The notes beneath the pieces are model-generated. The model was given only the letters and a program-made list of their open reading frames with translations. It did not search any database and was not told where the DNA came from. A stretch of DNA of 64,000 nt, taken from contig CP154954.1 in NCBI GenBank assembly GCA_039621445.1, positions 34,891,703-34,955,702 of the forward strand. Reading direction: 5' to 3'. Below are positions 3,773 to 36,833 of this stretch, piece by piece. Within the stretch, counting starts at the first letter, position 1. Each line of letters begins with the position of its first letter. The stretch is from Euglena gracilis. Taxonomy: Eukaryota. Made by a program: the position numbers and the translations under genes.

Positions 3773-4425
3773 TGTCGACTGTCGGGGGCGTCCGACAGTC
3801 AAAAATGGTAGGGCGGAAGCTTTTGAAAACACGGAATTTTCATTCCGCGCAGAACGCGCATTCAATAGGAAAAGCCTAATTTGAGGTTCTAATTTAACAC
3901 AATTTGCTTCCGCAGACCTTTGTGGGTTTTTTGTGATTGGCATCAATCAACAATTGAATTGGAGAATTGAATTCAAGGCAAGTTGCATTGTTTGGAAGAA
4001 TTGTCAATTTCAGGTCCCTCTTCCCACTTTCACGGTGTGTGCGTGTTTCTGTTGTCTTTTACCACCATCCATTGCACCAAAACACCCACCCTGACCATTT
4101 CCAGTGTTTTTGCAAACATAAGAAAGGGTTGGTGAAATGGATTTGTGGGGACTGAAATTTGGACTACATTTTTAAAGGAAGAGAATTTTGACTTTGTGCA
4201 AGTTTTCAGGGGAAAAGCAAATTTGATCCTACGCACACGCCTCTGGTCGGGGGGTACACCAGTTGGCGAAACGGGGGGTGGCCTGAGCCGTCCACCAGCC
4301 AGAAAAACACTGGCCCCGGGACAGGGAACAACAGCCCCAAGGGTGGGTGTCAGGGACGAGGCAGCCGGCCGGGGGGGCTGGGGTATCGGGTCCGACACTC
4401 GCAGGGGGGGCGCCGGGTGTGAACA
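3773..4425 (+). mobile_element. Family A LTR copy 2 (solo-like)
   Basis: Near-identical to 2264-2916 and flanked by TTGG on both sides. Confidence 0.85.
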
Positions 4426-5281
4426 TTGGGCCTTACTCCGAGTAACCGAATGGGTGTTCCAGGAGGCCTCCAACGTCGGGGGACCCGTTGGTTTCGTGAT
4501 TGTCGTGGTTTAATGGTAAGAAAAACATGCAGCGGGAATGTTGGTTGCAAGAAATGAGCACATTTAGATGGGTGCATTCGACCATTCCGGGGGACATTTA
4601 CCAGGTCAGCCCAGGTTACCACGTAAAAATGGACCAAATTGGGCCTTACTCCGAGTAACCGAAGGGGTGTTTCAGGAGGCCTGCAAAGTCAAGGGACCCG
4701 TTGGTTTCATGATTTTCGTGGTTTAATGGTAAGAAAAACATGCAGCGGAATGTTGGTTGCAAGAAATGAGCACATTTAGATGGGTGCATTCGACCATTCC
4801 GGGGGACATTTACCAGGTCAGCCCAGGTTACCATGTAAAAATGGACCAAATTGGGCCTTACTCCGAGTAACCGAATGGGTGTTACAGGAGGCCTCCAAAG
4901 TCAGGGGACCCGTTGGTTTCATGATTGTCGTGGTTTAATGGTAAGAAAAACATGCAGCGGGAATGTTGGTTGCAAGAAATGAGCACATTTCGATGGGTGC
5001 ATTCGACCATTCCGGGGGACATTTACCAGGTCAGCCCAGGTTACCATGTAAAAATGGACCAAATTGGGCCTTACTCCGAGTAACCGAATGGGTTTTACAG
5101 GAGGCCTCCAAAGTCAGGGGACCCGTTGGTTTCATGATTGTCGTGGTTTAATGGTAAGAAAAACATGCAGCGGGAATGTTGGTTGCAAGAAATGAGCACA
5201 TTTAGATGGGTGCATTCGACCATTCCGGGAGAACATTTACCAGGTCAGCCCAGGTTACCATGTAAAAATGGACCAAATTGG

Positions 5282-5934
5282 TGTCGACTGTCGGGGGCGT
5301 CCGACAGTCAAAAATGGTAGGGCGGAAGCTTTTGAAAACACGGAATTTTCATTCCGCGCAGAACGCGCATTCAATAGGAAAAGCCTAATTTGAGGTTCTA
5401 ATTTAACACAATTTGCTTCCGCAGACCTTTGTGGGTTTTTTGTGATTGGCATCAATCAACAATTGAATTGGAGAATTGAATTCAAGGCAAGTTGCATTGT
5501 TTGGAAGAATTGTCAATTTCAGGTCCCTCTTCCCACTTTCACGGTGTGTGCGTGTTTCTGTTGTCTTTTACCACCATCCATTGCACCAAAACACCCACAC
5601 TGACCATTTCCAGTGTTTTTGCAAACTTAAGAAAGGGTTGGTGAAATGGATTTGTGGGGACTGAAATTTGGACTACATTTTTAAAGGAAGAGAATTTTGA
5701 CTTTGTGCAAGTTTTCAGGGGAAAAGCAAATTTGATCCTACGCACACTCGTCTGGGGTGGGGGTACACCAGTTGGCGAAACGGGGGGTGGCCTGAGCCGT
5801 CCACCAGCCAGAAAAACACTGGCCCCGGGACAGGGAACAACAGCCCCAAGGGTGGGTGTCAGGGACGAGGCAGCCGGCCGGGGGGGCTGGGGTATCGGGT
5901 CCGACACTCGCAGGGGGGGCGCCGGGTGTGAACA
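5282..5934 (+). mobile_element. Family A LTR copy 3 (solo-like)
   Basis: Near-identical copy with TTGG on both sides. Confidence 0.85.
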
Positions 5935-6790
5935 TTGGGCCTTACTCCGAGTAACCGAATGGGTGTTCCAGGAGGCCTCCAACGTCGGGGGACCCGTTGG
6001 TTTCGTGATTGTCGTGGTTTAATGGTAAGAAAAACATGCAGCGGGAATGTTGGTTGCAAGAAATGAGCACATTTAGATGGGTGCATTCGACCATTCCGGG
6101 GGACATTTACCAGGTCAGCCCAGGTTACCACGTAAAAATGGACCAAATTGGGCCTTACTCCGAGTAACCGAAGGGGTGTTTCAGGAGGCCTGCAAAGTCA
6201 AGGGACCCGTTGGTTTCATGATTTTCGTGGTTTAATGGTAAGAAAAACATGCAGCGGAATGTTGGTTGCAAGAAATGAGCACATTTAGATGGGTGCATTC
6301 GACCATTCCGGGGGACATTTACCAGGTCAGCCCAGGTTACCATGTAAAAATGGACCAAATTGGGCCTTACTCCGAGTAACCGAATGGGTGTTACAGGAGG
6401 CCTCCAAAGTCAGGGGACCCGTTGGTTTCATGATTGTCGTGGTTTAATGGTAAGAAAAACATGCAGCGGGAATGTTGGTTGCAAGAAATGAGCACATTTC
6501 GATGGGTGCATTCGACCATTCCGGGGGACATTTACCAGGTCAGCCCAGGTTACCATGTAAAAATGGACCAAATTGGGCCTTACTCCGAGTAACCGAATGG
6601 GTTTTACAGGAGGCCTCCAAAGTCAGGGGACCCGTTGGTTTCATGATTGTCGTGGTTTAATGGTAAGAAAAACATGCAGCGGGAATGTTGGTTGCAAGAA
6701 ATGAGCACATTTAGATGGGTGCATTCGACCATTCCGGGAGAACATTTACCAGGTCAGCCCAGGTTACCATGTAAAAATGGACCAAATTGG

Positions 6791-7443
6791 TGTCGACTGT
6801 CGGGGGCGTCCGACAGTCAAAAATGGTAGGGCGGAAGCTTTTGAAAACACGGAATTTTCATTCCGCGCAGAACGCGCATTCAATAGGAAAAGCCTAATTT
6901 GAGGTTCTAATTTAACACAATTTGCTTCCGCAGACCTTTGTGGGTTTTTTGTGATTGGCATCAATCAACAATTGAATTGGAGAATTGAATTCAAGGCAAG
7001 TTGCATTGTTTGGAAGAATTGTCAATTTCAGGTCCCTCTTCCCACTTTCACGGTGTGTGCGTGTTTCTGTTGTCTTTTACCACCATCCATTGCACCAAAA
7101 CACCCACCCTGACCATTTCCAGTGTTTTTGCATACTTAAGAAAGGGTGGGTGAAATGGCTTCGTGGGGACTGAAATTTGGGACTACATTTTTAAAGGAAG
7201 AGAATTTTGACTTTGTGCAAGTTTTCAGGGGAAAAGCAAATTCGATCCTACGCGCTCCCCTCTGGTTCGGGGGTACACCAGTGGGCGAAACGGGGGGTGG
7301 CCTGAGCCCTCCACCACCCAGAAAAACACTGGCCCCGGGCCAGGGAACGGCAGCCCCAAGGGTGGGTGTCAGGGACGAGGCAGCCGGCCGGGGGGCTGGG
7401 GTATCGGGTCCGACACTCGCAAGGGGGGAGCCGGGTGTGAACA
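6791..7443 (+). mobile_element. Family A LTR copy 4 (solo LTR, more divergent 3' half)
   Basis: TGT...ACA ends with TTGG on both sides. The 3' half differs from copies 1-3. Confidence 0.85.
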
Positions 7444-8721
7444 TTGGGCCTTACTCCGAGTAACCGAATGGGTGTTCCAGGACGCCTCCAAAGTCAGGGG
7501 ACCCGTTGGTTTCATGATTGTCGTGGTTTAATGGTAAGAAAAACATGCAGCGGGAATGTTGGTTGCAAGAAATGAGCACATTTAGATGGGTGCTTTCGAC
7601 CATTCCGGGAGGTTTACCAGGTCAGCCCAGGTTACCCTGTAAAAATGGACCAAATTGGGCCTTACTCCGAGTAACCGAATGGGTGTTCCAGGAGGCCTCC
7701 AAAGTCAGGGCACCCGTTGGTTTCATGACTGTCGTGGTTTAATTGTAAGAAAAACATGCAGCGGGAATGTTGTTTGCAAGAATGAGCACATTCAGATGAG
7801 TGCATTCCACCATTCCGGGGGACACTTACCAGGTCAGCCCAGGTTACCATGTAAAAAAGGACCCAATTGGGCCTAGCTCCGAGTAACCGAATGGGTGTTC
7901 CAGGAGGCCTTTGAAGTCAGGGGACCCGTTGGTTTCAGGATTGTCGAGGTTAAATTGTAAGCAAAATATGCAGCGGGAATGTTGGTTGCAAGAAATGAGC
8001 ACATTTAGATGGGTGCATTCGACAATTCCGGGGGACATTTACCAGGTCAGCCCAGGTTACCATGTAAAAATGGACCCAATTGAGCCTAACTCCGAGTAAC
8101 CGAATGGGTGTTCCAGGAGGCCTTCAGAGTCAGGGGACCCGTTGGTTTCAGGATTGTCGTGGTTTAATGGTAAGAAAAACATGCAGCGGGAGTGTTGGTT
8201 GCAAGGCACGAGCACATTTAGATGGGTACATTCGACCATTCCGGGGGACATTTACCAGGTCAGCCCAGGTTACCCTGTAAAAATGGACCAAAATGGGCCT
8301 TATTCCGAGTAACCGAATGGGTGTTCCAGAAGGCCTCCAACGTCGGGGGACCCGTTGGTTTCATGATTGTCGTGGTTTAATTGTAAAAAAAACATGCAGC
8401 GGGAATGTTGGTTGCAAGACACGAGCACATTTAGATGGGTGCATTCGACCATTCCGGGGGACATTTACCAGGTCAGCCCAGGTTACCATGTAAAATGGAC
8501 CAAAATGGGCCTTACTCCGGGTAACCGAATGGGTGTTCCAGGAGGCCTCCAAAGTCAGGGGACCCGTTGGTTTCATGATTGTCGTGGTTTAATGGTAAGA
8601 AAAACATGCAGCGGGAATGTTGGTTGCAAGAAATGAGCACATTTAGATGGGTGCATTCGAAAATTCCAGGGGACATTTACAGGTCAGCCCCGGTTACCAT
8701 GTAAAAATGGACCAAGTGACC

Positions 8722-9405
8722 TGTGCGCGGTCCGAGGGTTCCCGCCCCAAGGAGGGGTCCCAAGGGGGCCAAAAGGGGCCACGAAGGGCCGCGAGGTGGC
8801 TCCAAGGCCCCCAAGGGCCTTTTGAGGCCCCACTGGCCCCCAAGGCGGCCCCACAGCCCATTGTGAGCAAGCCAAGGGAAGGTAAAGGAGGCGGCAGTTT
8901 GAGGGGGCCAACAGGCAACCCCCAAGGGGATGCGCAAGCCCTACAGGGCTTTGCACAAGCATGCGCACCCCCTTGGTCAGCGCTTGCGATGGCGCAATTC
9001 ATTATGAATTGCGCAGAGTATACCAAGTAGCCCCCCCAGCTGTAGCCCCCCTCCAATTGTACATTTTCTGTTCAAAGGGCTCTGTTTACACTCTGTTCAC
9101 ATACTGCTCTTTGTTTGGCATTCAACTGTGGTTTTGCATTTGGCAATCGACAAACAATCAAACGAGTTCAAGCAAACAAGTCCAAGTCATTGACCAGGTT
9201 ATTCATTCAAGTTCAATTGAGTGGACCCAAAAAGTACGTATTTTTCCAATTCTGCAGCTTCACCTACACCAACACCAACCCCTACCCCACTTTTTCACCA
9301 AGGGAAAAACCCTGTGGGCCCGACGGGCTCAAATCTAAACGATCCTACGCGGGTTGCGCCGCCAGGGGTCCCTTCGCAGGGACCACAGGAGGGGAAACCC
9401 CTACA
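8722..9405 (+). mobile_element. 5' LTR, family B (684 bp)
   Basis: TGTGCGCGG...CTACA. Roughly 90-94% identical by eye to 22179-22857. Confidence 0.92.
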
Positions 9406-9424
9406 TGGTAGCAGAGGGGGGTTT
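9406..9424 (+). other. Primer-binding site complementary to the 3' end of initiator tRNA-Met
   Basis: TGGTAGCAGAG(GGGGGTTT) directly follows the LTR CA and matches the ...CUCUGCUACCA end of eukaryotic tRNA-iMet. Confidence 0.85.
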
Positions 9425-10683
9425 GAGCCCTCTGGGCTCACACTATGTGAGCCTGGGGAAGTCCCAGAATACCAGGAGGAGGACGAGGACGACACCCGCC
9501 ACAGCCATGGCAGCCCCAGCCATTACGGCCAGGGCCAGGAGCTCCTGGCCATTGCTGGGCCAGCCCAGCCGGACCCCCAGCAGCAACAATCGTCTGGGTC
9601 GGGCTTGGCACTACCCGGCAGCCTGGGACTGCTATCCGGCATGCCCAGCTTGGTCATGCCAGAGTTTGTGCATGATATGACCAGGCAGCTCATGTGGCAG
9701 TTCGCCATGCGGGGGAAGATCAAAGAAGAAGAACAAGAACCAGAAGAAGAAGACGAAGAAGAATTTGCAAGCCAGACCCAGCCACCTTTACTGGAAGGGG
9801 GGCCCTGGAAGACGAAGAAGAATTTGCAAGTCAGACCCAGCCACTTTTACTGGAAGGGGGGCCCTGGCAAAACCCTGAGAGTGCCGGGCCGGCACATGCG
9901 CCGGTGGGCCATGTCGGGTCTGGGCATTTCCCAGCCGGACCCGACCATTGCTCGTTGGTGCATGCTGGTCCCGGGCATGATGGGCCCCAAGGACATGCCC
10001 CAGACCCAGCCACTCAGTGGCAGCTGCAGGAGCTGCCCCCAGCAGGGGATTTGATGGAGGACGAGGACCAGACATCCCAGGGGGGGGTTGGTGCCAGAAC
10101 AGAGCCCGAAGGGGAGGCACCCCCCTCACCCCCCTCAGAGGCTGTGGGAGGAGGCGGAGGTACACGCCGCTGCCTCAGTGGTTCTGGGGCAGGAGATCCA
10201 GAGGTTGGACGGTTGGGTTGGCGACCTGCAAAGTCGGCTCGCTGAAGCGGGGGCCACCACAGCTGCTTCAGTTAGCCGCCTGGAGCAGTTGGTGTCCCTG
10301 CAGTTTCAGCGGGTCATTGAAAATTTTTAAGGAGTGGTGCAGCAAATGGAAAGAACCCTGGCTGGGCTAGCGTCCCAGCTGGCTGACAATTTTCAAAATC
10401 TGCAGCAGAAGCAGATGGAAATTTTTTTTGGGGGGATGACAGCTTTGAGCGAGCTGGTGACCACACGGCTGGGCGAAAGCCTCGGGACTGTGGCCCTACT
10501 AGCACAGAGGGTCCAGGGGCTCGAGGCCATCGCCAGCCAGGGTCACCAGCCAGCTGAGGGGCAGGGGTTTAACGAGGCGATGACTGGGCGAGTAAAAAAC
10601 ATGGAAGAGCTCCTTGTCACCTCCGTCCGCACCACGGAGGAGGTGATGAGGAGCCAGGAGCTGGCCAGCGGGCGGGGAGGCTG
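9425..10683 (+). pseudogene. N-terminal low-complexity/coiled-coil part of the family B gag ORF (frameshifted, cut by the inversion)
   Basis: Overlapping ORFs 9221-10054, 10088-10330 and 10334-10684 with heptad-like helices. Contains a ~57-bp tandem duplication at ~9750-9870. Confidence 0.6.
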
Positions 10684-11110
10684 ATGTCGGCAAATACCTT
10701 GGAGGCAGGATATGCCCATCTGCTGAGGGCATCCGCCACCACGTTTTCCTTTCCCGGAATGTAGACCACGTGAAGGTCAAACCGGGAGAACATTTCATGC
10801 CAGCGGCCCCGCCTTCCCGCAGGTCCGCTGGGCGTGTCCAGGGTTTCCTTGGCCCAGGCCTCCAGGGACTTATGGTCCGTGAGGACCAACACCGGCTGCA
10901 GGCCGATGTAGGTGGCCCATTTTTGGAGGGCCAGGATGATGGCGTAAGTCTCCTTCTCTCGCGGAGACCAGCTCTTCACCTGCCCTTCCTGGAGCAGAAG
11001 GCCACCGGCACGGTTTTCCGTGTGGTGGCCTCCACGGCTGTGGGCATCCCCTCCGTTGGCTCCAAAAACTGTTCAAGGGCTGCCCTCACCGCCTTGTCGC
11101 TCGCATCAAC
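10684..11110 (-). pseudogene. RNase H of family B pol
   Basis: LLVDASD, PVAFCSRK, WSPREKETYAII, LTDHKSL, NVVADALSR. Frameshift near 10980. Confidence 0.92.
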
Positions 11111-12202
11111 CAGGAGAATGAACGGCTGGTCCAGGTTGATGGTGTGGAGCTCGAATCCCCGGAGGAGCTCCTGCTTCAGGGCGCTGAAGGCCTCCCGTTC
11201 CACTTGGCCGACTTTCACAGGTTTTTTGCTGCCTTTTTTCCCTTCCACACGTCCCACCTTTAGGAGTTCCATCAGGGGGGCTGCATACCGGGCATACTCC
11301 TTCACGTATCTGGAGTAGTAGTTGGAGAAGCCCAGAAAGCCCCTGAGGGCTGCGATCGTGCGGGGCTCCTCCCACTTCTCCAGCGCCATGAGTTTGCCCG
11401 GGGCTGGCCTCCGTTTTCCTCCCCCCAGGATGTGGCCACAGAACTCCACTTCTCTTACGAAGAAGCGGCACTTGTTTTTGTCCACGACCAGGCGGTGTCC
11501 CCGCAGTGCCCCCAACACTCGCCTTATGTCCTGGTCGTGTGCATCCAGGGTAGCTTCCTCCGTGCCACACCACTCGGTCCCCACGATGATGTCGTCAACG
11601 TATGGGTTGGTGACATCAGCCACATCCCTCAGCGAGTAGTCGATCACCCGCTGAAAAATGGCCACTCCGTTTTTCAGGCCCATCACGACCACACACCACT
11701 GCTTGGACCCTCGGGGGGTGCTGCTGCAGGTGTATGGGCGTGAGTCTTCGTGCAGGGGCACCTGATGGAAGGCATCCTTGGGATCAAGGACGGAGAACAG
11801 GTACCTCCGTCCCTGGTTCACCAGGATGTCTTCAATCCTGGGGAGGGGGTAAGCATCCGTCACTGTGGCCTCGTTTAATGCCCGGAAATCGACAACCCCA
11901 CGCCACTTCCCCTGTTTCTCGGCCACCACGGATGTGGGGCTGCTCCAGGCACTTGGCACCCCCTCCTCCACCTTCTTGTCCCGAACCGACTCATCCACCA
12001 GGTCACACAAGGCCCTGTGCCTCTCCCCTGTCAGGAGGATGGGCCTCTGTTTCTTTGCCACAGATCCCGGTTTTAATTCGATTTTCCCTTCCCCCAGGGG
12101 CCCCCGGACGATTATTTTCTCCCAAATCCTGTCCCGGAGAGCTTCCCCCTCGAAATCCTTTCGCAGGGCTGCCCGGAGCTCCTCAGCACGCTGGCTGGTC
12201 AC
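11111..12202 (-). pseudogene. Reverse transcriptase (Ty3/gypsy type)
   Basis: KWRGVVDFRALN, YPLPRIED, DAFHQV, MGLKNG, YVDD (11591-11602), FCGHI, LRGFLG. Confidence 0.95.
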
Positions 12203-12529
12203 CTGTTCCCCCTCGGGAACAAGGATGACCCCTTGGGCTGCCCGTCACTCGACCTCCCGGGCTGCCCGCAGGAATTCCTTGGCCATTGTCTCCTGGGTCG
12301 CCTCATCCTCGTGCAAGGAATTTTCCTCCCACTCAGGCTCCTCGGTGTCCTCCCCGAGGGCTGCCTCTGGCAAAGCAAGCCGCAGTGCTCTGACGTTTCC
12401 CACCATTTTCAGGTATCTCACTCGCTTTTGTGCGTTTTTGTGGGCTGCTGGCTGAACTTGCTCACCCTCCGCATCATGTCCCCGAAGGAGGACCACCTGC
12501 TCTCCCCTCAATGCCAAGGATCAGGGATG

Positions 12530-12880
12530 TGCAAACACCCCGAGCTGGTTTTCCTCCAGCCACGGGAACCCGACGATGGCCTCCACGTTGATGTCAGCCT
12601 CATAGAAGGAGGCTGGGGCCGTCCACAGGGCCCCCTCCCCCTGACCCGGCCCCCCCCCTCCCGCCGGAGGACCTGGTCTAGGGTTGCCTCACGTTCCCCC
12701 CCTTCCATCTTGGCGCCACTGGCCGTCACCAGGGACAGGGGCTTGGGGGCAGGCAGGAGGTATGTGCTGGGTAGCATGCCTCTTCGGACCAGGTTCACCT
12801 CTGCCCCTGTGTCAATGAGGGCGTTGACGAAGTGGGTCTGTCTGTCTGGCCCCCTGGCCTGCACCCGCATCAGCAGCTGC
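12530..12880 (-). pseudogene. Retropepsin-like aspartic protease
   Basis: ALIDTGAEVNLV (DTG at 12805-12813). The C-terminal AIVGFPWL motif lies in a shifted frame. Confidence 0.88.
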
Positions 12881-13004
12881 TGTTCACTGGCACCCTGCCC
12901 CACCTCACGGAGCAATACCGAGGGCACCCCTCGCTCTCTCTGGGGGTCCCGCTCTGGCTCCGGAGACCCGGCAGCGTGGGCCTCCGGTGCCGGTGCTGTG
13001 GCCA

Positions 13005-13605
13005 GGTCACGGATGAGCGCCTCTGGGATCCGATATTTCAGGTGCCGGGGCAGGTTTTGGTGTTTGCTGCCTAGCCAAATTTTGTGCCGTCCCTTCCGTC
13101 CCCCCTCAGGTACCGGGGTTTCCAGGTTGGAGCAGGTCCGGCCGTCACACACCCGTGGCTGGAGACCCAGTACATGGGGGCTGCCCCATATCCTGGTGGG
13201 CTTCTGGTAGCCCCAGTCTGCATACTGGCAGTAATCCACGTCCACGTGTGGGATCCCTTCCATGTACCTGCGGGTCCGCAGGTACCCGTACCGGGGGTTT
13301 TCCAGCCACCACCGCTGTGGGCAGAGGTACCTGATGATGGCCAGGGCCCGCCGCACCAGCCGATCAGCCAATTTTAAATCTCGTTCCCTGGTGGTCAGCG
13401 CCAGGCTGAATTCGGTGCAGGGGACCCCGCACACCACCACCTCAAAATCCCCAGGCTGGAACTGTTTTTTAAAATTCCATTTCAGCACGTCAACACAAAT
13501 GTCTGGCCGCCACCTGGGGTCCACGTCCACCGATGTGACCTGGTAACCCAGGCTGCGGTAGACGTCCCCTACTGAACCTATCCCGCAGAACAGGTCCAGC
13601 ATCCG
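13005..13605 (-). CDS. C5-cytosine DNA methyltransferase domain within the retrotransposon polyprotein
   Basis: Motif I MLDLFCGIGS, motif II VDVD, motif IV GVPCTEFS (PC at 13417-13422), motif VI WLENP (13294-13302), YCQY..YQKPTRIW and a motif X-like YRIPEAL. The frame is open and continuous with the protease. Confidence 0.9.
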
Positions 13606-13769
13606 CCTGGGCTGGTCCGCTCTCCCCACCTGCCCCAGGTGTGCCGGCTTGACCTCCCCTGTGCCCCACCCGGTCCCTGGGGGTGGCCCTGAAAAATTTG
13701 TCCCGAACCTGGTTTTTTTCTCCCTCCCCCTTCGTGTCACCTCCTCCAGCGTGCACCGGTCTGGGTGCC

Positions 13770-14145
13770 CACACAGCAAAAAGGCAGTGATGGGCCACTT
13801 GGTCCCCCGGCACAACTCCTCCCCTCTGCCGAAAAATCGTGTTCCCTGAGGGAACGTGACTTGGCGCACTGCCAAGCCCCTGGCCTCCTGTACCAACGCC
13901 GCCCCGGCCACCTGGGGATAACCAAGATGGCGTGGGCCTGATCCCTCCTGATTTTTTCGAGAACTTCCTGTAATTTTTTATAAGGTGGGTTGATCCACAA
14001 AACCTCCCTGCCCCAGTCCTGTTTGAAGGCATCTTCCCCTTCCCCACTCCCTGGCCCCCACCAGCGGACAAACCTGCGGTTTTCTTTGGCAGAAAAGGCG
14101 TCGACCTCCGGCTGGACCCCCTCCCGGACGTGGTAGTCCTGGGAG
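13770..14145 (-). pseudogene. Dam-like amino-methyltransferase domain (N6-adenine type, similar to the DIRS1/phage MT domain)
   Basis: DY..PEVDAFSAKENRRF..W..DAFKQDW..LWINPPY (NPPY at 13980-13991)..LEKIRRD..ILVIPRWP..W. One frameshift near 13890. Confidence 0.85.
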
Positions 14146-14882
14146 ATCCACCGGGAGGGCGACCTCCCAAACCCTGAGGAACGGGCTGGGAGTGGTGCTG
14201 GGGCTGGCTGTGGTGTGGGGGCTGAGGTGGAAGGTGCGGCCCTGACGCACCTCACCTGGCTAATCGAAAAACCTGAATCCCTTTCCGTGCTGGGGGCGGT
14301 TTCATCCGTGCCTTTGCTGGTTTAGGGAACGTTGATGACCTCCCTCGCTGCCTCCCTGATTGATGCCTGTGAGAGCGTTTTGTCTTTTTCTTTTTCATTT
14401 TTTTGTTTTATGTTTTTCTCCTCCCTTCCTGGTGTCGTGATCTGCGGTAGACCGGGTGTGTTGGAACCCGAAGACCCCTGGGCGGCCTGCCCGCGGAGGG
14501 CCAGCCGCCTTGTGTCCCTTCCCCTTTTGTCCCGAATCTGAACTCCGACCCGAGCCCCCCCCTGGCCTGCCCTCACTGGTGAAAAGCGCAGACCAGGGGT
14601 TTGCAGAGTCGAATGAGAGGGCCTGATGGCCCCCCCACCCCCTTTTTGTGTCTCAGTCAGGGGGGGCTGGGGGGACCGTGCAGGTCCAGGTCCGGATCTG
14701 CCTTTGGACCTTCCCTTGACCAAAACCCAACCCTCTGTGTGAACCCTTTCCTTACCCCCCTTCCGAGGGCCGTGCTGGGGGTACCCTGGGCCCCCGTCCC
14801 CTCCCTTCTGGACCCCGCTTTTTCAGGCACTCCTCCGCCGTGGGGGTGTGGACGCCTCCTTCCCCTTTCCCTTTCTCCACCA

Positions 14883-14978
14883 GCAATATCGTGCCAGATG
14901 TCCCGTTTTCCCACACTCATAACATTTTTTTCCAGGGCATTCCCGAGACCAGTGATCTGTGGCCCCGCACTGGCCGCA
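14883..14978 (-). pseudogene. Two CCHC zinc knuckles of Gag
   Basis: CGQCGATDHWSREC and CYECGKTGHLARYC. Confidence 0.92.
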
Positions 14979-15386
14979 AGGCTGGTCCACCGAGGGGCCA
15001 CTCCGGGGGCTCATCGGGGGGGTTTGTTCCCTGTTGGTGGCAGGGTGAGGGGTTGGGGACCTGGCTGGGCGAGACTCTGGGGCGCCCTTGCCAGCTCCCT
15101 TGCCGAACCCCTTCCCCTTTGGCCCCGGGCTACATGACCTGCGTCCATCCCGTCCCTTTCCAGGTGACCTGCCCCGGTGCTGTGATTGCCTGTCCTGTGG
15201 CCCCTCGGGGCCTTGGGGGGTCCTGCCTTTGCTCCTCCCTCAGCCTCAACAATTTTTCAGTCTCTGAGGTAAAATCCCAGGAAGCCAGGCCAGCCCAGCC
15301 CCAGAAAACGGTTTCAAAGCCAGCTCCCCCTTCCACCCCAAGAAAGGCCATAGCTGTCAGACCGTTCCCGGCACCGCAGCTCATTT

Positions 15387-16100
15387 TCAGCGTGTCGAAA
15401 AACGTCTTCCAATCCCAGCTTTGTATTGCCCCCCTGCAGCGTGGCCCCGTTCCTCATCATCAGCCTCTCCAGCGCCCGCTGGCTGTAGAGCTTGATGAGA
15501 AAGGAGTCCCGGTGTGCCCTGACTGTCACCGCTCCCCTCACCCACAGCCTCCTGGGCGAATTGTGTTGCCTTTTCCGCCGTCAACCCAGGGATGTGCAAC
15601 AGCCGCACTGTGGGTGCATCCTGATTTTTTCGGGTCTGCTCCATGATTATTGCCCTACGCATGGAATCTGGGAGCTGCTGCAGAACCAGAGCCTGTGCTT
15701 CCTCCTCAGAGGGGTTTTCCATCCGGCAGAAAATGATTTAAACTGGCTTTCACATTCACGCCACGCTGGGAGGGTTAACTTGCCCGTGTTTGCCGGCCTG
15801 AGGGCCCTGAGCTGCTCATGCAGCGAGGCCTGGATGTCACAGCCGTATTTCTGGGCCAGCCAGTTCCAGAAATCCTGCAACATGACTCGTTCCCCAATCT
15901 CCTGTCGCCGCTGGAGTTCCAGCCGGCTGCTGTGGTCCAGGCAGCCGGTCAGAACTAGCATTTTAAATTCCTCCCCCACTGGCTGTCCCATGGAAACCTG
16001 CTGCATGTAAAGCTTAAATTTTACTGAAAAATCATGAAAATCCCCTTTCAGCTCTGGTTTTACAAGGTCTTTGATGAGGAGTGTTGCCAGCGGCCCCAAA
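15387..16100 (-). pseudogene. Gag capsid-like core of family B (frameshifted)
   Basis: KPELKGDFHDFSVKFKLY..LTGCLD..FWNWLAQKYG..QALVLQQLPDSMRRAI, positioned upstream of the zinc knuckles. Confidence 0.7.
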
Positions 16101-17039
16101 AACATGCTGGCTGCTGGGCTGGGGGCTGCTGGCGCCACGTGGACCGGAGCTGCCTGGACCCCCCGGACCCAGGCTCCCGTGTCCTGGGACCCGAAGGCCA
16201 GAGGGGCAGCGCTGCACGATGCTGCCCCAGCCTCAGGGGCCCAGGCGAAAGGGTCCATTGCCCACGTGAACTCCCGTCCTGCGGGGAACCCACGGGGCTG
16301 GGGGGGCCACTGGTGCTCGGCTGATTTCACCTCAGGTTGATCCCTGCCCTGGCCCTGTAGATCTGCTGTGCCTGCTGCCTGTGGTTTCGCTGTGCCGGAC
16401 TGTCCCGTTGTTCGTGAATTTTACTGAGACTGTTGCTGCTGCTCCTGGGCTCCCAACCTGGCCAAAAACTTAAAAAATCCGTGAGCCTTAATCTGGTGTT
16501 CCGCTTCCTCCCAATCCACCCCCTGGAACCTGAACGTGCCAGGTGTCTGGGCAGCTGGGGTCCCTCCAGCAGCGGGGACCCGGACCGGACTGCCCCTCAC
16601 AGTCCTGGGACCCTGGGGCTGGCTGCCCCCCGCAGCCGTGGGGCCCTGGGGCAGGCTGCCCCCCGCAGCCATGGGACCCGGGGGCTGGCTGCCCCTTGGT
16701 TTCTGGGGGCCAGAACCTGAAAACGCATTGGGGAAAACTGCAGTCATAGAATCTGGGCCCGGGGATACCACTTCCCCGGGAATTTGGGTCACTGTCTCCG
16801 CTGCCCCGCTGCTGGGGCCCCTGGAGGGCCACGGGCCCCTTGCCTCCCAACACGCTGGGATGGACTGGGAGCTGGTGCTGGGGGCCAGGAGGCATATTGC
16901 CCCCCGCGGCACCCGAGCCATTGGTACTCTGGGCCCCCGGCGTGTACTGGGTCTGGGGGTCTGTGGTTGCCGGGGGCACTCTGGCTTCGGGGCCTCGGGG
17001 GTCCTCGCTCTCCGGCCCCACTCCTCTTGGTGGCTGCGG

Positions 17040-17452
17040 TAAACCCCCCCCAAATAATACCCCCCCCCAAATAATACACCCCCCCCAAATAATCCCCCTC
17101 CCTTGGGGTCCGACTTCGGCCGCCGAAATAATATACCCCCCGGTTTCGGGCCGAAGGCCCGGATTTTTGACCTGAAAATGTAGGTAAAAATCACAATTTC
17201 TGTCAACAAATTATGAAGAAAATGGATTTTTCTGGCTCATCTGGCCTCCAAAAATGGTAAATTTCACAAGAAAGTGCAAAAAATGACCCCAAAGGGCGGT
17301 TTTGGGTGCTATTTTGGGTTTTACGGGACTTCGAAAAATTTCGAAAATTTTGGAAAAATAATACCTCCCCCAAATAATACCCCCCCCCTCGGGCCGGGAC
17401 TTCGGGCGAAAAAATAATACCCCTGGGGGGCATTATTTGGGGGGGTGGTTTA
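17040..17452. mobile_element. MITE nested in family B gag
   Basis: Imperfect TIRs TAAACC(A)CCCCCCCAAATAAT / ATTATTTGGGGGGGTGGTTTA with an AT-rich core. Possibly a TA TSD. Confidence 0.65.
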
Positions 17453-18295
17453 GCTCCTGGATGGGGGCAACAAAATTCAAAATTTTCGATTTTCTTTTCC
17501 AAAACGAAAAGCCGATTTTTTATTTCGGCATTTTCTTTTGGTGCCCCCTTTTTTGTTGAGTCCACCTCCAGGAGCAGGGCGTTGTGGGCCTGGATCACCT
17601 TCGTGGGTAGTGATCTCGGCCCACAGCTCCTGCAGGCTGTGGCCCTGCCCCTCAGACCCTGGTCCTCAGCTCTCTTATCTCCTCCTTTATGGCCCCTTGT
17701 TGTTCGGCGATAATTGAGGCCTGGCTGTCCAGTTCGGCCCGAAAATTTTGCAGGGCATGTGCACTCCCTGCTTTTCTTTCTCGCAGCCACCCGAGTTCAC
17801 CCGTCAGCTGGTTTAATTTTTGGTCCAAGGCCTCGGCGTGAGCCTGCTGCAGAACTGCTGCAGAACAGCTGGGAACGAGGGGGATGATGAGGCAATGAGG
17901 GCCGTGATCGAAGAAGAACGGAGGGAAGAGCGAGAATGCGGCACACCGCACGGGGGGGGGAGGAACTCCACGTGGCGGTAACAACACGCAGTGGGAGAGA
18001 CACAGCAGCACAGCACAGACCTGGCCCCAGCCCCACAGAGGGGGAGGGGGCTGAGGATTCAGTGCCAGGGGGCCCTGGCCCTGACCCCACAGGGGGGGGG
18101 AGGGGCTTGTGGACGCCCCCTCGGGAGGTTCGGGTCCTATCCTCAAAGGAGGGGAGGGACCTGGGGTACCTAAGTTGGACACGATGGAGACAAGGGGTTC
18201 CACACGTGCCCATCAGTTTGTGGATGAATTCGGGAATGAACAACCGGCAGGAGGGGGGGGACCTGAGGAACACTAACCGGGGCGAAGAGTTCTGA

Positions 18296-19704
18296 GTGAG
18301 GACCTGCAGTCGACACCCCCATCAACGATCCCCACGGGGGGATCTGGGGGAATTTGAGGGGGAACCAATTTCACTTTCTCCAGACACGGGGGTGCACACC
18401 CAGGAGGAGGTGGAGGAGGATCCCTCCATCCTAGTGATGGACAGGGATTGGTCTCGGGCACACGGGATGTGCCCGGTGTGGGGGCCTGTTTATGCAAGTG
18501 TACAGGCCCCTGCGGGAGATTGGCCCGAAGGAGTCCGTTTGTACGGGGACAAAATGTACACGGACGGGCTCCTCTGTGTGCCCACCAGCCTGATGGGGCT
18601 GGTTGTGCGGGCCCACCATGGGGACGCGGGCCACCCAGGTGCCTCAAGGCTATGGCACCAGATGGGGCGGTGGTATAGGTTTGCAGATCCAAGGGGGGCA
18701 GAGAAAATCACCCAAGGCATCCAGCGGCAATGTGAAATCTGCCAAGCAGGTGAACCCTCTCGAGCACCTTTCAAGTGTGCTCTCGAAGCCACCCCTGTGC
18801 CGCCGTTCCTCATGGACAGTGTGTCAGTGGACCTGTTCGCCATGCCTGAGGTGACCCACGAGGGCCAGGTGTATGATTACCTGGCCCTGTGCGTGGACCG
18901 TGAGAGTGGGTGGACAGTGGCCACCACCCACAAGTACAAGGGCCTGACAGGTGAGGTGGTGGCCAAGGCCATGTTCCGCCACTGGGACATGTTCGGGTTG
19001 CCCTCTGTGGTGATCTCGGACCGTGGCCCCCACTTCGCTTCGGCTTGGTGCAAACAATGTGCGCCGCCATGGGGGTGAGGCGTGCCTATGGGCAGGCCTA
19101 CCACCACCAGGCCAACGGTCGGGCAGAGGTGGCAGGCCAACGGGTGATGAACACCCTGTCCAAGCTCATCGCTGACCTGTCGGAGAAGGAGGACTCATGG
19201 GTGGTGCTGTTACCCAAGGCCCTCCGGCACCTGCACGATGTGCCAGGGGAGTCCGGCCTGTCGCCCTACGAGGTGGTCTTCGGGCGGCACCGGCCACTCC
19301 AAGGCCTGCCCCACCAGCCCCCACGAGAGGCCGAGGGGGCAGCCGACTTCATGGCACGGATGCGGGCTATGGACGAGAAGGTGGCCTCAACCTTGAATGC
19401 CTTGCACGCCAAACGGTGGGCTTCCATAAACGCCAAGAGAAGGGACCAACCTCCCATGGAGGTCGGTGCCAAGGTGTGGTACCGTCCCGAGACACAGCCG
19501 GGCACGGACAAGTTGGCCACCAAGTAGAAGAGGGGGACTGTGGTGGCCCGCCGGGGTCGCCACTCATATGTGGTGGAGCTGGCCCCGGGGGCCCGCCAAG
19601 AGACACACCGGAGCCAACTCAAGCTCCAAGCGGAAGACGAGTTCTCCACCGACCACCTCCCACTGTTCTATTTCAATGACAAGGCGGCCCCCCTAGAGGT
19701 GTGA
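18296..19704 (+). pseudogene. Integrase of family B
   Basis: HHCC zinc domain (AHHGDAGHPG..CEIC), DDE core (SVDLF, VISDRG, QANGRAE) and SPYEVVFG. Frameshift near 19050 and stops at 19525 and 19702. Confidence 0.93.
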
Positions 19705-19890
19705 CCGGATGAGTGGGTCGTGGAGGAGATTGTGGACAGCCGGAACCACCCGGAAACGGGGGTCCCGGAATTTCAGGTGAGGTGGAAAAATTGGGATCCG
19801 ACGGATCTCCAATGGCTGCCTTGGTCGGATTTCTTCCCCTCCTACAACGAGGATGTGGTGGATTATTGTGCAGCCAAGGGGATTCCGTTG
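19705..19890 (+). pseudogene. Chromodomain at the integrase C-terminus
   Basis: EWVVEEIVDSR..EFQVRWKNWDPTDLQWLP, in frame with the integrase. Confidence 0.88.
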
Positions 19891-20045
19891 GAGGTGGTGG
19901 GACTTCTTCGCCCCGGGAAGAGGGGGGGGGGCGGGGACGGGGTCAATAAGGAGGGAGAGGGGAGGAGGTGGAGGCGAGGGGACGGCGGGTGCGGGGATTG
20001 TGGTGGTGGCGGAACACACACACATCCTTCGCTCTTGTGCGTAGG

Positions 20046-20570
20046 ATGCAGCGCTACGTGCCCCGTCGCCCCTACGTCCCTGGACCTCTCCCCGTCGTCC
20101 CCCCGCCCCCATCGGCCGCCGAGGCGGAGGCCGCCCTCCTCACCCTCTTGCCCGCCCCCAAGCGCCCCCGCCTGGACACCCCCGCGGAACCTACCCAGCC
20201 GGCCGACTCCCCCCGACCACCGTCCCCCACACGCCCGCAGGACATCCGCTCCGTGCTGGCCTACCTCCAGGGGCTGGTGGCGGAGGTGGTGCACCTCAGG
20301 AGCGTGGTGGGGCGGTTGGTGGGCGAGGGAGCGCCGCAGCGGGTGGATGCGGAGGTGCAGGCGGAGGCGCCTGGCGAAGGGTACGACCAGGTGAGCGAGG
20401 AGGAGGCAAGCGAGTCGGGGTCGTTGGACCTCCTCGCCGCGGCTGCCACGGCCGGGGACCCCGAGGCCGAGGACGCCGCAGGGGACCAGGTCGGGGAGCC
20501 CGGCGGGGTGCTCAAACTGCTCCTCGCGGAGTTCGAGCCCTTGTGGCCCGGCTCCGATGAGGACCCCTAA
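20046..20570 (+). CDS. Possible 174-aa accessory ORF in the 3' region of family B
   Basis: ATG-to-TAA uninterrupted. Pro-rich with a PAPKRPRL NLS-like motif, an amphipathic helix and an acidic tail. No recognisable domain, and the DNA is GC-rich so a chance ORF is possible. Confidence 0.4.
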   Translation: MQRYVPRRPYVPGPLPVVPPPPSAAEAEAALLTLLPAPKRPRLDTPAEPTQPADSPRPPSPTRPQDIRSVLAYLQGLVAEVVHLRSVVGRLVGEGAPQRVDAEVQAEAPGEGYDQVSEEEASESGSLDLLAAAATAGDPEAEDAAGDQVGEPGGVLKLLLAEFEPLWPGSDEDP

Positions 20571-22167
20571 GCCTCCCCCCCCCCCCGCCGACCCAGACGT
20601 AGCCCGGGCCGGCTTACCTGTGGAGGCTAGCCCACCGGGTGGGGGGGAGAAGAAAATGGGGTTGGTGCGGGAAAACTAGGAGGGACCGAGCTGATTTCCT
20701 TTGTTTGTTGTTGTTGTTGTGTTTCGCAGGTTCAATCTCAATTTCAATTTCAGCGAAGTCAACCCCAGAGTGCCCCTTGGCTACGGGCGAGGGGGCCAGG
20801 AGGGGCGACGGGACGCCCGGGTGGGGCGAGGAGGCCACAGGAGCACACCGGGGGGGGGGTCCCAAGGGTTGAGGGGGCCCACAGCCCCCCGCAAGGCTGG
20901 CCTCGCCCACCACCCGCGGCACACATAGCGCCCCGAGGGGCAAGCTCCCCACGAGACGAGGCGCCCCACGCGCCGCACGTGGACCACACCGCACGGTGCG
21001 GCGCCCGAGGTGCCAACAGGGGGTCCACAGGCGCCTGCGGGCCCGAGAGCCCACAGGGCCAAGGAGGCCCAACGGGTGCCTCGAGCCCCCGGGGGTGCAT
21101 GTTTTTTGAGCCCTTCAAGTGTTCGGTCGATCTCCATTTCATTTTCGTGTTGTGTTGTCATTAGGCGGTGGAGGTGCCCCGTGGCCAAGTTGGCTCCGGG
21201 GGGGGGGCACCTGCTATTTTAACCAACTTTTGAAGGTTGGCCACACTCATCTTTGGCCCACCGTGCCGAGGTAGGGGGGGGCGCCTGCCAATTCTTCCCG
21301 ATTTTTGACGGTTGGCTGCCCCCTCATCAGCCAACCGTGCCGACAGAAAGGGGGGGGGGCGCCTGGGCGCCTGCCGTTTTTTTTTTGCGGTCGTCCACAC
21401 CCCTCCTCGGCCCACCATGTCGGGGGAGGGGGGGGGGAGGCGCCTGCCGATTTTCCATCTTTTTTAAAAAATACAACCCGTCGGCCATTTTTTGATGTTA
21501 AGCACGCCAAGGGGGGGGCAAGTGCCAACCCCCCTCCACACCGGAAGGAGCGGGGGGGGGCAGCCCCAAGCCCCCCCTCTCAAGAGGACGGGCCACGGCC
21601 AAGGCGGCCCAGCCCACAACGCGGGGGGGGGCAGCCCCGACCCCCTCCACGGGAGGGGGGGGGGCAGCCCCCTCCTCCAAGGAACGGGCCCCACCCAAGG
21701 CGCCTCCCCGGCGCCCCCTCCAGCACGCACCCCTGCCAAGCCCCCGGGGGCCTTTGGCCCCGGGAAACCGGGCAAGGCGTGGCGGCCCTGCTGGGTTTGT
21801 CAAATGTTTCCTTCCGAACATGCAGGAGCTTTCCATGCAGGGCCTGGGAGGGGAATCACAATTACATAGTGGTATCGAGTGTTTCGGGGGGGGGGCAGTC
21901 CGCCCCTACCCATGGGCCAGGAAGGCTCACGGGACCGGAGAGGGAGAGGAGGTTCCCCAAGCGGTGCCTCCCCGGGTCACGAGCCCGGAGGCGCCCGTCA
22001 CCCTTCTCGCCCCTCCCTTGTACCCCCTCCCCGACAGCATGCGCCGCGGCACGTGGCGCCACCGCTTGTGCGTTTCAACAAAAAAAGGCGGGAAAGCAAA
22101 AGGGAGGGGGGGGGCGGCACCTCGGACCGGCAAAGGAGTCCAATTTAAATTGCACGGCAGTTTTTTT

Positions 22168-22178
22168 GAGGAGGGGAG
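22168..22178 (+). other. Polypurine tract of family B
   Basis: GAGGAGGGGAG directly before the 3' LTR. Confidence 0.85.
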
Positions 22179-22857
22179 TGTGCGCGGTCCGAGGGTGCCC
22201 GCCCCAAGGAGGAGTCCCAAGGGGGCCCAAAGGGGCCACGAAGGACCGCGAGGGGGCTCCAAGGCCCCCAAGGGCCTTTTGAGGCTCCACTGGCCCCCAA
22301 GGGGGCCCCACAGCCCATTTTGAGCAATCCAAGGTAAAGGAGGGGGCAGTTCGAGGGGGCCAACAGGCAACCCCCAAGGGGATGCGCAAGCCCTGCAGGG
22401 CTTTGCGCAAGCATGCGCACCCCCTTGGTTGGCGCTTGGGATGGCGCAATTCATTAAGAATTGCGCAGAGTATACCAAGTAGCCCCCCCAGCTGCAGCCC
22501 CGTTCCAGTTGTACATTTTCTGTTCACAGGGCTCTGTTTACACTCTGTTCACATACTGTTCTTTGTTTGGCATTCAATCGGGTTTTTGCATTTCCCAATG
22601 AACAAACAATCAAACAAGTTCAAGCAAACAAGTCCAAGTCATTGACCAGATTATTCATTCACGTTCAATTGAGTGGACCCCAAAAGCATGTATTTTTCCA
22701 ATTCTGCAGCTTCACCTACATTAACACCAACCCCTACCCCACGTTTTCACCAAGGGGAAAACCCTGTGGGCCCGACGGGCTCAAACTTAAACGATCCTAC
22801 GCGGGTTGAGCCTCCAGAAGTCTCTTCGCAGGGACCTCAGGAGGGGCAACCCCTACC
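22179..22857 (+). mobile_element. 3' LTR, family B
   Basis: Direct repeat of 8722-9405. The terminal CA reads CC, and the satellite resumes at AACCGAATGGG. Confidence 0.9.

Positions 22858-36788: not shown

Positions 36789-36833
<45 letters not shown>

Follow-up and report, generated by a model that had tools for sequence, protein, structure and literature searches.

LTR retrotransposons that join a Dam-like domain (DAM), a cytosine methyltransferase (DNMT) and a chromodomain have been described under the name EpiLTRs from Euglena gracilis and Cymbomonas tetramitiformis, in a preprint that places their DNMT as sister to DNMT4 (Fernandez-Moreno et al., bioRxiv 10.64898/2026.05.21.726589, May 2026). 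The dual-methyltransferase chromovirus architecture is therefore already known (10.64898/2026.05.21.726589), and our literature search on DAM, DNMT and chromodomain within an LTR element found this preprint alone. Two other retrotransposons with captured cytosine methyltransferases had been reported earlier (de Mendoza et al. 2018, PMC5890265). The first, KnitGypsy-Dnmt3 of Klebsormidium nitens, is a Gypsy element that carries a DNMT3 domain inside Pol, under purifying selection and, as described there, with no Dam-like domain beside it. The second, SymbioLINE-Dnmt of Symbiodinium, is a LINE whose DNMT is a separate ORF1 and which, in the same account, lacks LTRs, integrase and Dam. The novelty that the initial annotation had claimed for the present locus is thus outdated by the EpiLTR preprint and, with the architecture in print, the window analysed here (the whole stretch of 64,000 nucleotides) serves mainly as an independent confirmation.

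The window contains a 14.1 kb LTR retrotransposon (8722-22857) embedded in a 213-bp satellite array. In our assessment this is very probably a Ty3/Gypsy chromovirus of the EpiLTR kind, present as a dead and rearranged copy of a very abundant family in which both methyltransferases (MTases) are inherited parts of the polyprotein. Its features, with Pfam searches run on stop-to-stop ORFs of both strands, are the following:

8722-9405, plus strand: 5' LTR, starting with TGTG and ending in CTACA (blastn against the 3' LTR)
9406-9417, plus strand: PBS-like sequence TGGTAGCAGAGG, directly 3' of the 5' LTR, read from the sequence
9418-10676, plus strand: 5' leader and first part of gag, with helical Q/E/L-rich ORFs, ending at the left inversion breakpoint
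10677-17871, minus strand: inverted segment (gag, nucleocapsid, Dam-like domain, C5-MTase, protease, RT and RNase H), in the orientation opposite to that of the LTRs and integrase
10677-12244, minus strand: RT and RNase H, with YVDD at 11591-11602 and a frame change near 10980 (Pfam and tblastn)
12667-12900, minus strand: aspartic protease (PR), with DTG at 12805-12813 (translation, and tblastn with the protease regions of relatives)
12958-13608, minus strand: compact C5-cytosine DNA methyltransferase with FCGIG (motif I), PC (motif IV) and ENP (motif VI), frame intact
13750-14156, minus strand: Dam-like (DIRS-type) N6-adenine-MTase-like domain, with NPPY at 13980-13991 and one frameshift near 13886-13905
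14883-14978, minus strand: nucleocapsid (NC) with two CCHC knuckles (PF00098, E 5.5e-8, two stretches)
15647-16420, minus strand: putative capsid-like part of Gag, a 257-aa open frame preceding the knuckles, assigned by position only
18320-19560, plus strand: integrase (IN), comprising an H2C2 zinc domain and a DDE core; the frame changes near 19050 (Pfam and tblastn)
19714-19830, plus strand: chromodomain (PF00385, E 8.2e-6)
22168-22178, plus strand: polypurine tract (PPT) GAGGAGGGGAG, directly 5' of the 3' LTR, read from the sequence
22179-22857, plus strand: 3' LTR (blastn against the 5' LTR), with satellite again from 22858

blastn aligned the two LTRs over 683 bp at 91.9% identity (8722-9404 against 22179-22856); both start with TG and the 5' LTR ends with CA. 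The target-site duplication is imperfect, since the flanks GACC and AACC agree at only 3 of 4 positions. We take the PBS-like TGGTAGCAGAGG to be the complement of the 3' end of initiator tRNA-Met. Pfam identified RVT_1 (E 8.3e-28) and RT_RNaseH_2 (E 1.5e-6) in the minus-strand ORF 10976-12244, and rve (E 9.3e-6) and Integrase_H2C2 (E 5e-4) in the plus-strand ORF 18296-19078, the tblastn match to the integrase being split at 19048-19063. C-terminal to the integrase, the chromodomain scores 26.1 bits against a cut-off of 25.1 (ORF 19705-20394, plus strand). Both zf-CCHC knuckles (14937-14978 and 14883-14924) lie in the minus-strand ORF 14823-15239; no Pfam family matched the leader and first gag part (9418-10676), nor did any match the 257-aa capsid-like frame at E<=0.01. 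Once the inversion is accounted for, the Pol order PR-RT-RNase H-IN holds and the canonical order of the element reads LTR-PBS-Gag-NC (2x CCHC)-Dam-like-compact C5-MTase-PR-RT-RNase H-IN-chromodomain-PPT-LTR. Pfam and blastn thereby bear out the annotated Gypsy chromovirus with a Dam-like domain and a C5-MTase between nucleocapsid and protease, all within one LTR pair. Elsewhere in the window, blastn of the element against the remaining DNA showed no second copy of the family, and Pfam gave 0 families for the 10 longest ORFs there; Rfam gave 0 matches over the whole window.

The internal inversion, which had also been annotated, is supported from two sides. In tblastn with 8 relatives, the match to their RNase H breaks off at 10677-10680, and the match to integrase restarts on the plus strand at 18320-18450. 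The un-inverted joint, which connects 10676 and 17871 on opposite strands, is present in 4 of 4 public runs compared (X1, X2, X15 and X18, with 2, 3, 1 and 1 contigs, respectively), and because of these contigs we consider the canonical family to be colinear. The inversion of 10677-17871 could then be an assembly error and the true copy at this locus colinear as well, given that, of the two arrangements, only the canonical joint occurs among the joints listed (15 of 323) and that, among the 32 pieces listed, no contig spans 10676/10677 or 17871/17872 in the window arrangement. However, the junction of a single copy would drown in a high-copy family, so its absence among the joints listed means little, and the breakpoints are base-exact and were found to have no inverted repeats able to mislead an assembler. 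We regard an assembly error as rather unlikely and continue with a genuine inversion. The window copy is dead: it shows 8% divergence between its LTRs, the inversion, 2 in-frame stops (14823-14825 and 14322-14324) on the stretch from the knuckles to the Dam-like domain, further breaks in pol, and frameshifts, including one that falls within the Dam-like domain. Neither the stops nor the pol breaks had been mentioned in the annotation. After inserting into the 213-bp satellite, this copy acquired its LTR divergence, the inversion of 10677-17871, the stops and the frameshifts.

Within the C5 module, on the minus strand, FCGIG is located at 13576-13590, PC at 13417-13422 and ENP at 13294-13302. 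Translation agreed with the annotated intact frame continuous with the protease, the C5-MTase and the protease DTG sharing one uninterrupted open frame. The match to PF00145 DNA_methylase (E 0.006, 16.5 bits; minus-strand ORF 12508-13977) is under the cut-off of 22 bits, but the low Pfam scores of the MTases in the window are backed by phmmer relatives, by a DNMT1 profile match and by a confident C5 fold. Specifically, phmmer with the C5 region retrieved 2961 representatives at E<=1e-3 (best 5.7e-93), the C5 family profile matches DNMT1 motifs I-VI (E 1e-5), and the AF2 model reaches a pLDDT of 89.2 and a pTM of 0.84. Foldseek matched this fold to DNMT3A/B, DNMT1, DIM-2 and M.HhaI (E about 5e-8, probability 1.00), the best viral structural match being the cytosine MTase of Tetraselmis virus 1 (E 4e-22, 33% identity, TM 0.70/0.79); with only 16-21% identity to DNMT3 chains, the module is not of DNMT3 type. 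All 36 C5 sequences compared, at 34-63% identity, keep the catalytic cysteine of PC (C88) as well as E127 and P129 of ENP. Canonical C5-MTases have characteristic forms of motifs VIII (QxRxR), IX and X; the window enzyme has QKPTR where QxRxR is expected and RIPEAL at the usual place of motif X. Its variable region comprises about 50 residues with conserved C151, C178, C183 and H199, apparently without a canonical target-recognition domain. Between L005 and L006, two LTR-type C5 domains of a sister clade, dN/dS is 0.07 over 165 codons (substitutions being saturated in the remaining 20 of the 21 pairs), which points to purifying selection on the LTR-type C5 domain in that sister-clade pair.

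The Dam-like domain was annotated correctly as regards its NPPY motif and its family (PF05869 Dam, E 9.4e-5, 22.6 bits, under the cut-off of 28.1; minus-strand ORF 13737-14321), but it is split by one frameshift that the annotation did not mention. The Dam-like family HMM accordingly aligns in two frames, with 99.2 bits for HMM positions 9-105 and 32.7 bits for positions 101-149, and NPP[YWF] is kept in 18 of 18 aligned Dam-like relatives. Because the domain is frame-broken in the window copy, its structural model is partial (mean pLDDT 66, core 86-95). The matches of this model are weak, all below Z 8, from a cap adenosine N6-MTase (7.9) to T4 Dam (5.8), EcoDam (5.1) and DpnM (4.9). A PDB sequence search with P0003 returned only three unrelated methyltransferases (E 0.37-0.99), none of them matching the Dam-like part. 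In the 7 metagenome loci with a TE context, which are mostly short, the Dam-like HMM detected no such domain.

Both modules recur in related proteins. The C5 region is matched at 44-64% identity by 27 proteins of 857-2445 aa, and a near-length protein search gave a best match of 62%, except for P0232, which is 95% identical over 15% of the query. Dam and C5 occur together in 16 of the 31 relatives that reach 850 aa or more, and C5 alone in the other 15; as five of these C5-only proteins are full-length chromodomain-bearing ORFs, Dam is dispensable. Five chromodomain-bearing ORFs of 1763-1911 aa (P0011, P0014, P0020, P0022 and P0026) contain both MTase modules, and these intact relatives also encode RT, RNase H and integrase. 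While the MTases of the window stay below the Pfam cut-offs, P0011, P0022 and P0026 exceed the gathering scores (Dam 33.5-45.3 bits, DNA_methylase 26.4-28.2 bits), the DNA_methylase scores of relatives spanning 25.3-28.2 bits. In the public runs, the contig of X15 record 12 (13538-14016) spans the Dam/C5 boundary and X15 record 11 spans the PR/RT boundary, and contigs cover 26 of 30 element bins in X18 (RNA-labelled) and 30 of 30 in X15 (guessed to be RNA), a coverage that cannot show transcription. One contig each in X1 and X2 jumps over 12506-13172, so some copies are without part of PR and C5.

Since the window copy is rearranged by the inversion and lies in repeat-rich DNA prone to misassembly, its MTase region might have come from a single nested insertion, or be a chimera of the assembly, and so be foreign to the retrotransposon family. 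The relatives, the run contigs and the trees already contradict this: intact relatives hold the same modules within a single ORF, contigs of 4 independent runs cover and bridge the MTase region, the C5 frame continues directly into the protease, and the clade of the window agrees between the C5 and RT trees. A one-off insertion or chimera is highly improbable, and both MTase modules are inherited polyprotein parts of the lineage. None of the findings that the annotation had named as refuting it was obtained, since both domains occur in relatives, the HMMs do match, and NPP[YWF] and PC are conserved.

In the RT tree, the window forms a clade with P0232 and P0004 (support 100/99), and in the C5 tree with P0003 and P0004 (support 98). 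The C5 tree comprises 76 rows (all LTR-context proteins of at least 850 aa, all loci with a domain match and 13 short standalone proteins) and leaves out about 146 short fragments; in it, LTR-borne domains stand apart from standalone and viral enzymes (support 96-98). At least four domain orders exist in the clade, each of them forming its own RT clade, and the C5 module seems to have been inherited vertically with RT. New in this analysis is the identification of the C5 module as the compact type common to a giant virus, virophage contigs and a Symbiodinium-annotated cluster. Tentatively, and as a possibility we would not yet favour, the lineage and host of the element may be other than the two species of the preprint, and dual-MTase chromoviruses may constitute a large, old and mostly uncultured clade. 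In such a clade the compact C5 of giant-virus/virophage type would be inherited vertically with RT, the DIRS-type Dam-like domain would be gained or lost beside it, and Dam and C5 would have changed place together, taking up at least three arrangements with respect to the protease (NC-Dam-C5-PR, PR-Dam-C5-RT and C5-Dam-PR). If true, this would imply a viral source for the cytosine writer and selection to retain both writers within the packaged Gag-Pol.

As for function, the MTase modules are always inside Gag-Pol and would thus be made as part of it and carried into the particle. Either inside the particle or within the pre-integration complex, the modules may methylate the reverse-transcribed DNA of the element itself, the C5 module depositing 5mC and the Dam-like module 6mA, and the chromodomain would guide integration toward the chromatin so marked. 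The element family could in this manner act as a write-and-read cassette marking its own cDNA, of which the window copy itself is incapable in methylation, packaging and targeting alike. The modules could also be MTase folds that do not write DNA marks, serving for nucleic-acid binding, for methylation of RNA (the genomic RNA or the tRNA primer) or for RNA:DNA hybrids only. Reported heterologous assays were negative, with no rise of 6mA in E. coli for the expressed eukaryotic DAMs, DAM-LTR ones included (10.64898/2026.05.21.726589), and no DNA methylation in yeast for the one SymbioLINE-Dnmt reported as tested (de Mendoza et al. 2018, PMC5890265). The preprint further reports that the Dam-like domain aligns with part of prokaryotic Dam only (10.64898/2026.05.21.726589). 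In our own data, the top match of the partial Dam-like model is an enzyme acting on the RNA cap, and the C5 module has the short variable region and Cys/Cys/Cys/His set described above, apparently in place of a canonical target-recognition domain. Against this, in three species DAM-LTR insertions are reported to carry more 6mA than other LTRs do (10.64898/2026.05.21.726589), the C5 module is structurally closest to DNA C5-MTases, and retention of the catalytic Cys, ENP and NPP[YWF] over deep divergence favours catalysis of some kind. We lean against modules that leave DNA unmarked, and keep the marking of element cDNA as a proposal. Retrotransposons equipped with their own writers of DNA marks and a chromatin reader would mean that mobile elements can themselves act on the epigenome of the host, beyond being silenced by it. 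To this the present analysis adds C5 catalytic residues kept across a clade with thousands of representatives and modules at several Pol positions, each fixed per RT lineage, and these points sharpen and make testable the question of whether the MTase domains methylate the cDNA of the element.

Compared with the described systems, the window element is most like the EpiLTRs, as both are LTR elements of Ty3/Gypsy type whose single polyprotein combines a Dam-like domain, a C5-MTase and a chromodomain, and it may be the Euglena EpiLTR family itself. It differs in that its C5 module lies between NC and PR whereas the Cymbomonas DNMT lies at the 3' end of pol, a comparison which rests on the Cymbomonas order, as the Euglena domain order is absent from the main text of the preprint. 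KnitGypsy-Dnmt3 is alike in being a Gypsy element with a selected C5-MTase inside Pol, but the window domain is compact, of about 210 residues, accompanied by a Dam-like domain, and nearest to giant-virus and virophage enzymes. In contrast to SymbioLINE-Dnmt, the window element has LTRs, a DDE integrase, a protease and a DNMT fused into the polyprotein. The 213-aa C5 homologue P0129 (E 1.8e-39, 43% identity) is at most a candidate for the SymbioLINE ORF1; its 90% cluster also includes proteins whose annotation reads Symbiodinium microadriaticum putative DNA cytosine-5 MTase. This cluster belongs to the same compact C5 superfamily as the window enzyme and groups in the C5 tree with standalone and viral-like enzymes, not with LTR-borne ones. 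DIRS1-type retroelements share the Dam-like family (PF05869 match, NPP[YWF]) but rely on a tyrosine recombinase and have repeats that are split or inverted; in the window element the integrase is of DDE type, the LTRs are direct, and both a PBS and a PPT are present. Lastly, the compact C5-MTases of giant viruses and virophages (e.g., Tetraselmis virus 1; on contig L019 a C5 homologue adjoins Sputnik-type capsid genes) are standalone genes of AT-rich viral genomes, in a clade separate from the LTR-borne domains, but resemble the window module in size, in fold and in the WGYxKPT and ENPRxG motifs.

Judging from comparison with its relatives, both methyltransferases (MTases) belong to the family of the Gypsy-type element that splits the satellite array. 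Its LTRs (8722-9404 and 22179-22856) share 91.9% identity over 683 bp and start with TG, and the 5' LTR ends in CA. TGGTAGCAGAGG, which is presumably complementary to initiator tRNA-Met, lies directly 3' of the 5' LTR and the purine run GAGGAGGGGAG adjoins the 3' LTR, so that both ends set the plus strand as the sense strand. The flanking bases (GACC and AACC) are identical at three of four positions and the target duplication is thus not clean.

Features of the element and its setting
2916-8715 and 22858-29638: 213-bp satellite array, split by the element
8722-22857, plus strand: LTR retrotransposon, 14.1 kb, with two direct LTRs
Minus strand: two CCHC knuckles (Pfam, E 5.5e-8)
Minus strand: Dam-like domain, PF05869 (Pfam, E 9.4e-5; 22.6 bits, below the cut-off of 28.1)
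13980-13991, minus strand: NPPY motif (Dam-like)
Minus strand: DNA_methylase, PF00145 (Pfam, E 0.006; 16.5 bits, below the cut-off of 22)
13576-13590, minus strand: FCGIG motif (C5)
13417-13422, minus strand: PC motif (C5)
13294-13302, minus strand: ENP motif (C5)
12805-12813, minus strand: DTG motif (protease)
Minus strand: reverse transcriptase (RT), RVT_1 (Pfam, E 8e-28)
Minus strand: RNase H (Pfam)
Plus strand: integrase zinc and core domains (Pfam)
Plus strand: chromodomain (Pfam, 26.1 bits, above the cut-off of 25.1)

The initial annotation had read this anatomy correctly from the sequence; Pfam domains, motifs and LTR pair were all recovered, including the NPPY, FCGIG, PC and ENP motifs that it had named. 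Pfam finds both MTase families, each below cut-off in this copy, and a single 489-codon open frame (12508-13977) spans the C5 domain and the protease, as had been proposed for an intact and continuous C5 frame. Between chromodomain and 3' LTR, a GC-rich stretch (19823-21325, up to 0.69) is without Pfam match and was matched by fewer family contigs than elsewhere in the element, and could be a variable 3' segment. Inside the gag region, 16817-17818 holds C-rich 'CCCCCCCCAAATAATA'-like repeats, with a summed contig depth about 3 times that of adjacent bins in both DNA runs and depths of 754 and 361 in the presumed RNA run, against at most 29 in all its remaining bins, and may represent a different high-copy repeat that has inserted into the element or that the element shares.

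Elsewhere in the window, further 213-bp arrays lie at 58666-59671 and 59666-64000, the latter reversed relative to the other arrays; the satellite makes up a large share of the window, whose GC skew takes strong positive or negative values following array orientation. A 132-base C run with 86% matches occupies 36741-36872. Two long overlapping plus-strand frames of 465 and 479 aa (50756-53547) gave no Pfam match; the first carries a 33-bp tandem repeat with SSIEHPPTQI-like units followed by coiled-coil-like sequence and the second is Gag-like by eye, and this lower-GC region is probably another retroelement.

The inversion claimed initially is supported by a break in homology to eight long relatives, in which RNase H ends at 10677-10680 on the minus strand and integrase restarts at 18320-18450 on the plus strand. 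Contigs of all four public sequencing runs (2, 3, 1 and 1 contigs; region compared 8300-23300) join 10676 to 17871 on opposite strands, indicating that the canonical family is colinear and that the window copy, as assembled, is inverted at 10677-17871. The partner joint was absent from the 15 of 323 joints listed, and a search for inverted repeats at the breakpoints found none. The inversion may belong to the organism or to the assembly alone.

Whichever applies, the window copy is dead, a fossil with 8% divergence between its LTRs. Two in-frame stops (14823-14825 and 14322-14324) lie between knuckles and Dam-like domain, the former of which could be the natural gag end. A frameshift near 13886-13905 breaks the Dam-like domain, the frame changes from protease to RT with a stop at 12245-12247, and it changes again near 10980 (RNase H) and near 19050 (integrase). 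The Dam and integrase breaks are specific to this copy, since there most DNA-run family contigs are one base longer or shorter than the window. The element has an observed/expected CpG ratio of 0.50-0.52, versus 0.62-0.71 for the satellite, and the window has T/A where the family has C/G at 101 + 88 positions (run X1) against 71 + 56 in reverse, a pattern that fits decay by cytosine deamination without proving it.

An exhaustive search returned 2961 representative homologues at E<=1e-3, of which 185 reach E<=1e-30, and a search for longer ones gave 27 proteins (857-2445 aa) that are 44-64% identical to the C5 region. Relatives without the domains had been named as evidence against the initial reading; local HMMs sorted 31 relatives with a length of 850 aa or more into 16 that carry Dam-like and C5 domains and 15 that have C5 alone. 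Dam, C5, RT, RNase H and integrase are combined in five ORFs (1763-1911 aa) extending to the chromodomain (P0011, P0014, P0020, P0022, P0026), and P0011, P0022 and P0026 exceed Pfam gathering scores for both MTase families; five other chromodomain-reaching ORFs have C5 and no Dam. Contigs of other runs bridge the Dam/C5 and protease/RT boundaries, and 12506-13172 is missing from one X1 contig and one X2 contig, implying a deletion there in some copies. At 2-695 (plus strand) lies the 3' end of another chromovirus, with 62-70% protein identity to P0022 and P0026 across integrase C-terminus and chromodomain; at the nucleotide level it does not resemble the main element.

Four groups emerge from the RT-RNase H tree (28 rows). 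The window, P0232 (92% identity) and P0004 form the first (support 100/99; Dam-C5-protease-RT); 15 rows form the second (100/100), with protease-Dam-C5-RT, or protease-C5-RT in P0024, in all rows complete enough to show order; eight rows the third (100/99; C5-(Dam)-protease-RT); and two rows the fourth (C5-protease-RT). The window's clade was also recovered in the C5 tree (support 98), an agreement indicating that domain order is stable per lineage and that the C5 module travelled with RT.

A metagenome scan gave 37 loci with C5 homologues. Seven, with GC 0.46-0.58, were counted as transposable-element context, and three of these (L001, L004, L007) also match P0022 protease or RT; L037 (GC 0.53) has a very long branch in the C5 tree. 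The 29 AT-rich loci (GC 0.24-0.37) carry a standalone homologue at 26-44% identity. In the 76-row C5 tree the 25 AT-rich rows group together (support 96), in a clade which with 11 short standalone proteins is separate from LTR-borne C5 domains (support 98); one of these standalone proteins, P0129, falls in the same 90% cluster as proteins of Symbiodinium microadriaticum whose annotation is putative cytosine-5 MTase. L019, a virophage-like contig, encodes a C5 homologue (6447-7226) and Sputnik-type major and minor capsid genes (E 4e-86 and 2e-36), AT-rich L018 and L024 with compact homologues encode a D5-like primase-helicase, and L010 and L013 gave weak capsid matches.

The catalytic conservation that the initial annotation had set as a check was found in both modules. 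In a 36-sequence C5 alignment (34-63% identity to the window), the invariant residues are the PC catalytic Cys, Glu and Pro of ENP, and ten more, and all 18 Dam-like domains aligned carry NPP[YWF]. C151, C178, C183 and H199 of the 246-aa query (window 13132-13236 and 13081-13083), in a short variable region, are invariant or nearly so across the 36 sequences and form a putative zinc site, which may replace the canonical target-recognition domain. A dN/dS below 1 was obtained for C5 in one pair, two metagenome loci of a sister clade (dN 0.083, dS 1.19, ratio 0.07, 165 codons), the other 20 of the 21 pairs being saturated.

The C5 model (pLDDT 89.2, pTM 0.84) matches DNMT3A/B, DNMT1, DIM-2 and M.HhaI in Foldseek (E ~5e-8), and the family profile aligns DNMT1 motifs I-VI (E 1e-5); among viral models the putative cytosine MTase (218 aa) from Tetraselmis virus 1 matches best by a wide margin (E 4e-22, 33% identity). 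A frame break interrupts the Dam-like domain in this copy, which makes its model partial; the weak top matches of that model, all under the search tool's safe level, are N6-adenine enzymes (cap adenosine MTase Z 7.9, T4 Dam 5.8, EcoDam 5.1, DpnM 4.9).

With architecture, inheritance and catalytic-residue conservation established, a role can be proposed. Because they always lie inside Gag-Pol, the MTase modules would be expected to be co-packaged with the RNA; they could then mark nascent cDNA ahead of integration, at a site that the chromodomain might guide. A 2026 preprint (bioRxiv May 2026, 10.64898/2026.05.21.726589) reports higher 6mA on DAM-LTR insertions than on other LTRs. The main rival explanation holds that the modules keep the MTase fold and act on RNA or hybrids, or purely structurally, and it is favoured by negative heterologous assays, expressed eukaryotic DAMs not having raised 6mA in E. 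coli in the same source.

The initial annotation had known of no precedent for the arrangement; the dual-MTase chromodomain LTR design is, in fact, already in print. SymbioLINE-Dnmt, SymbioDIRS-Dnmt3 and KnitGypsy-Dnmt3 were described by de Mendoza et al. 2018 (PMC5890265). The 2026 preprint (10.64898/2026.05.21.726589) places Dam-like domains in non-DIRS LTR elements and describes, from Cymbomonas tetramitiformis and Euglena gracilis, chromovirus-like 'EpiLTRs' that combine DAM, DNMT and a chromodomain; in the literature searched, no other description of this combination was found. All EpiLTR features examined are present in the window element. The preprint's main text does not give the Euglena order; in the Cymbomonas EpiLTR the DNMT lies at the 3' end of pol, and from this the order of the window element differs.
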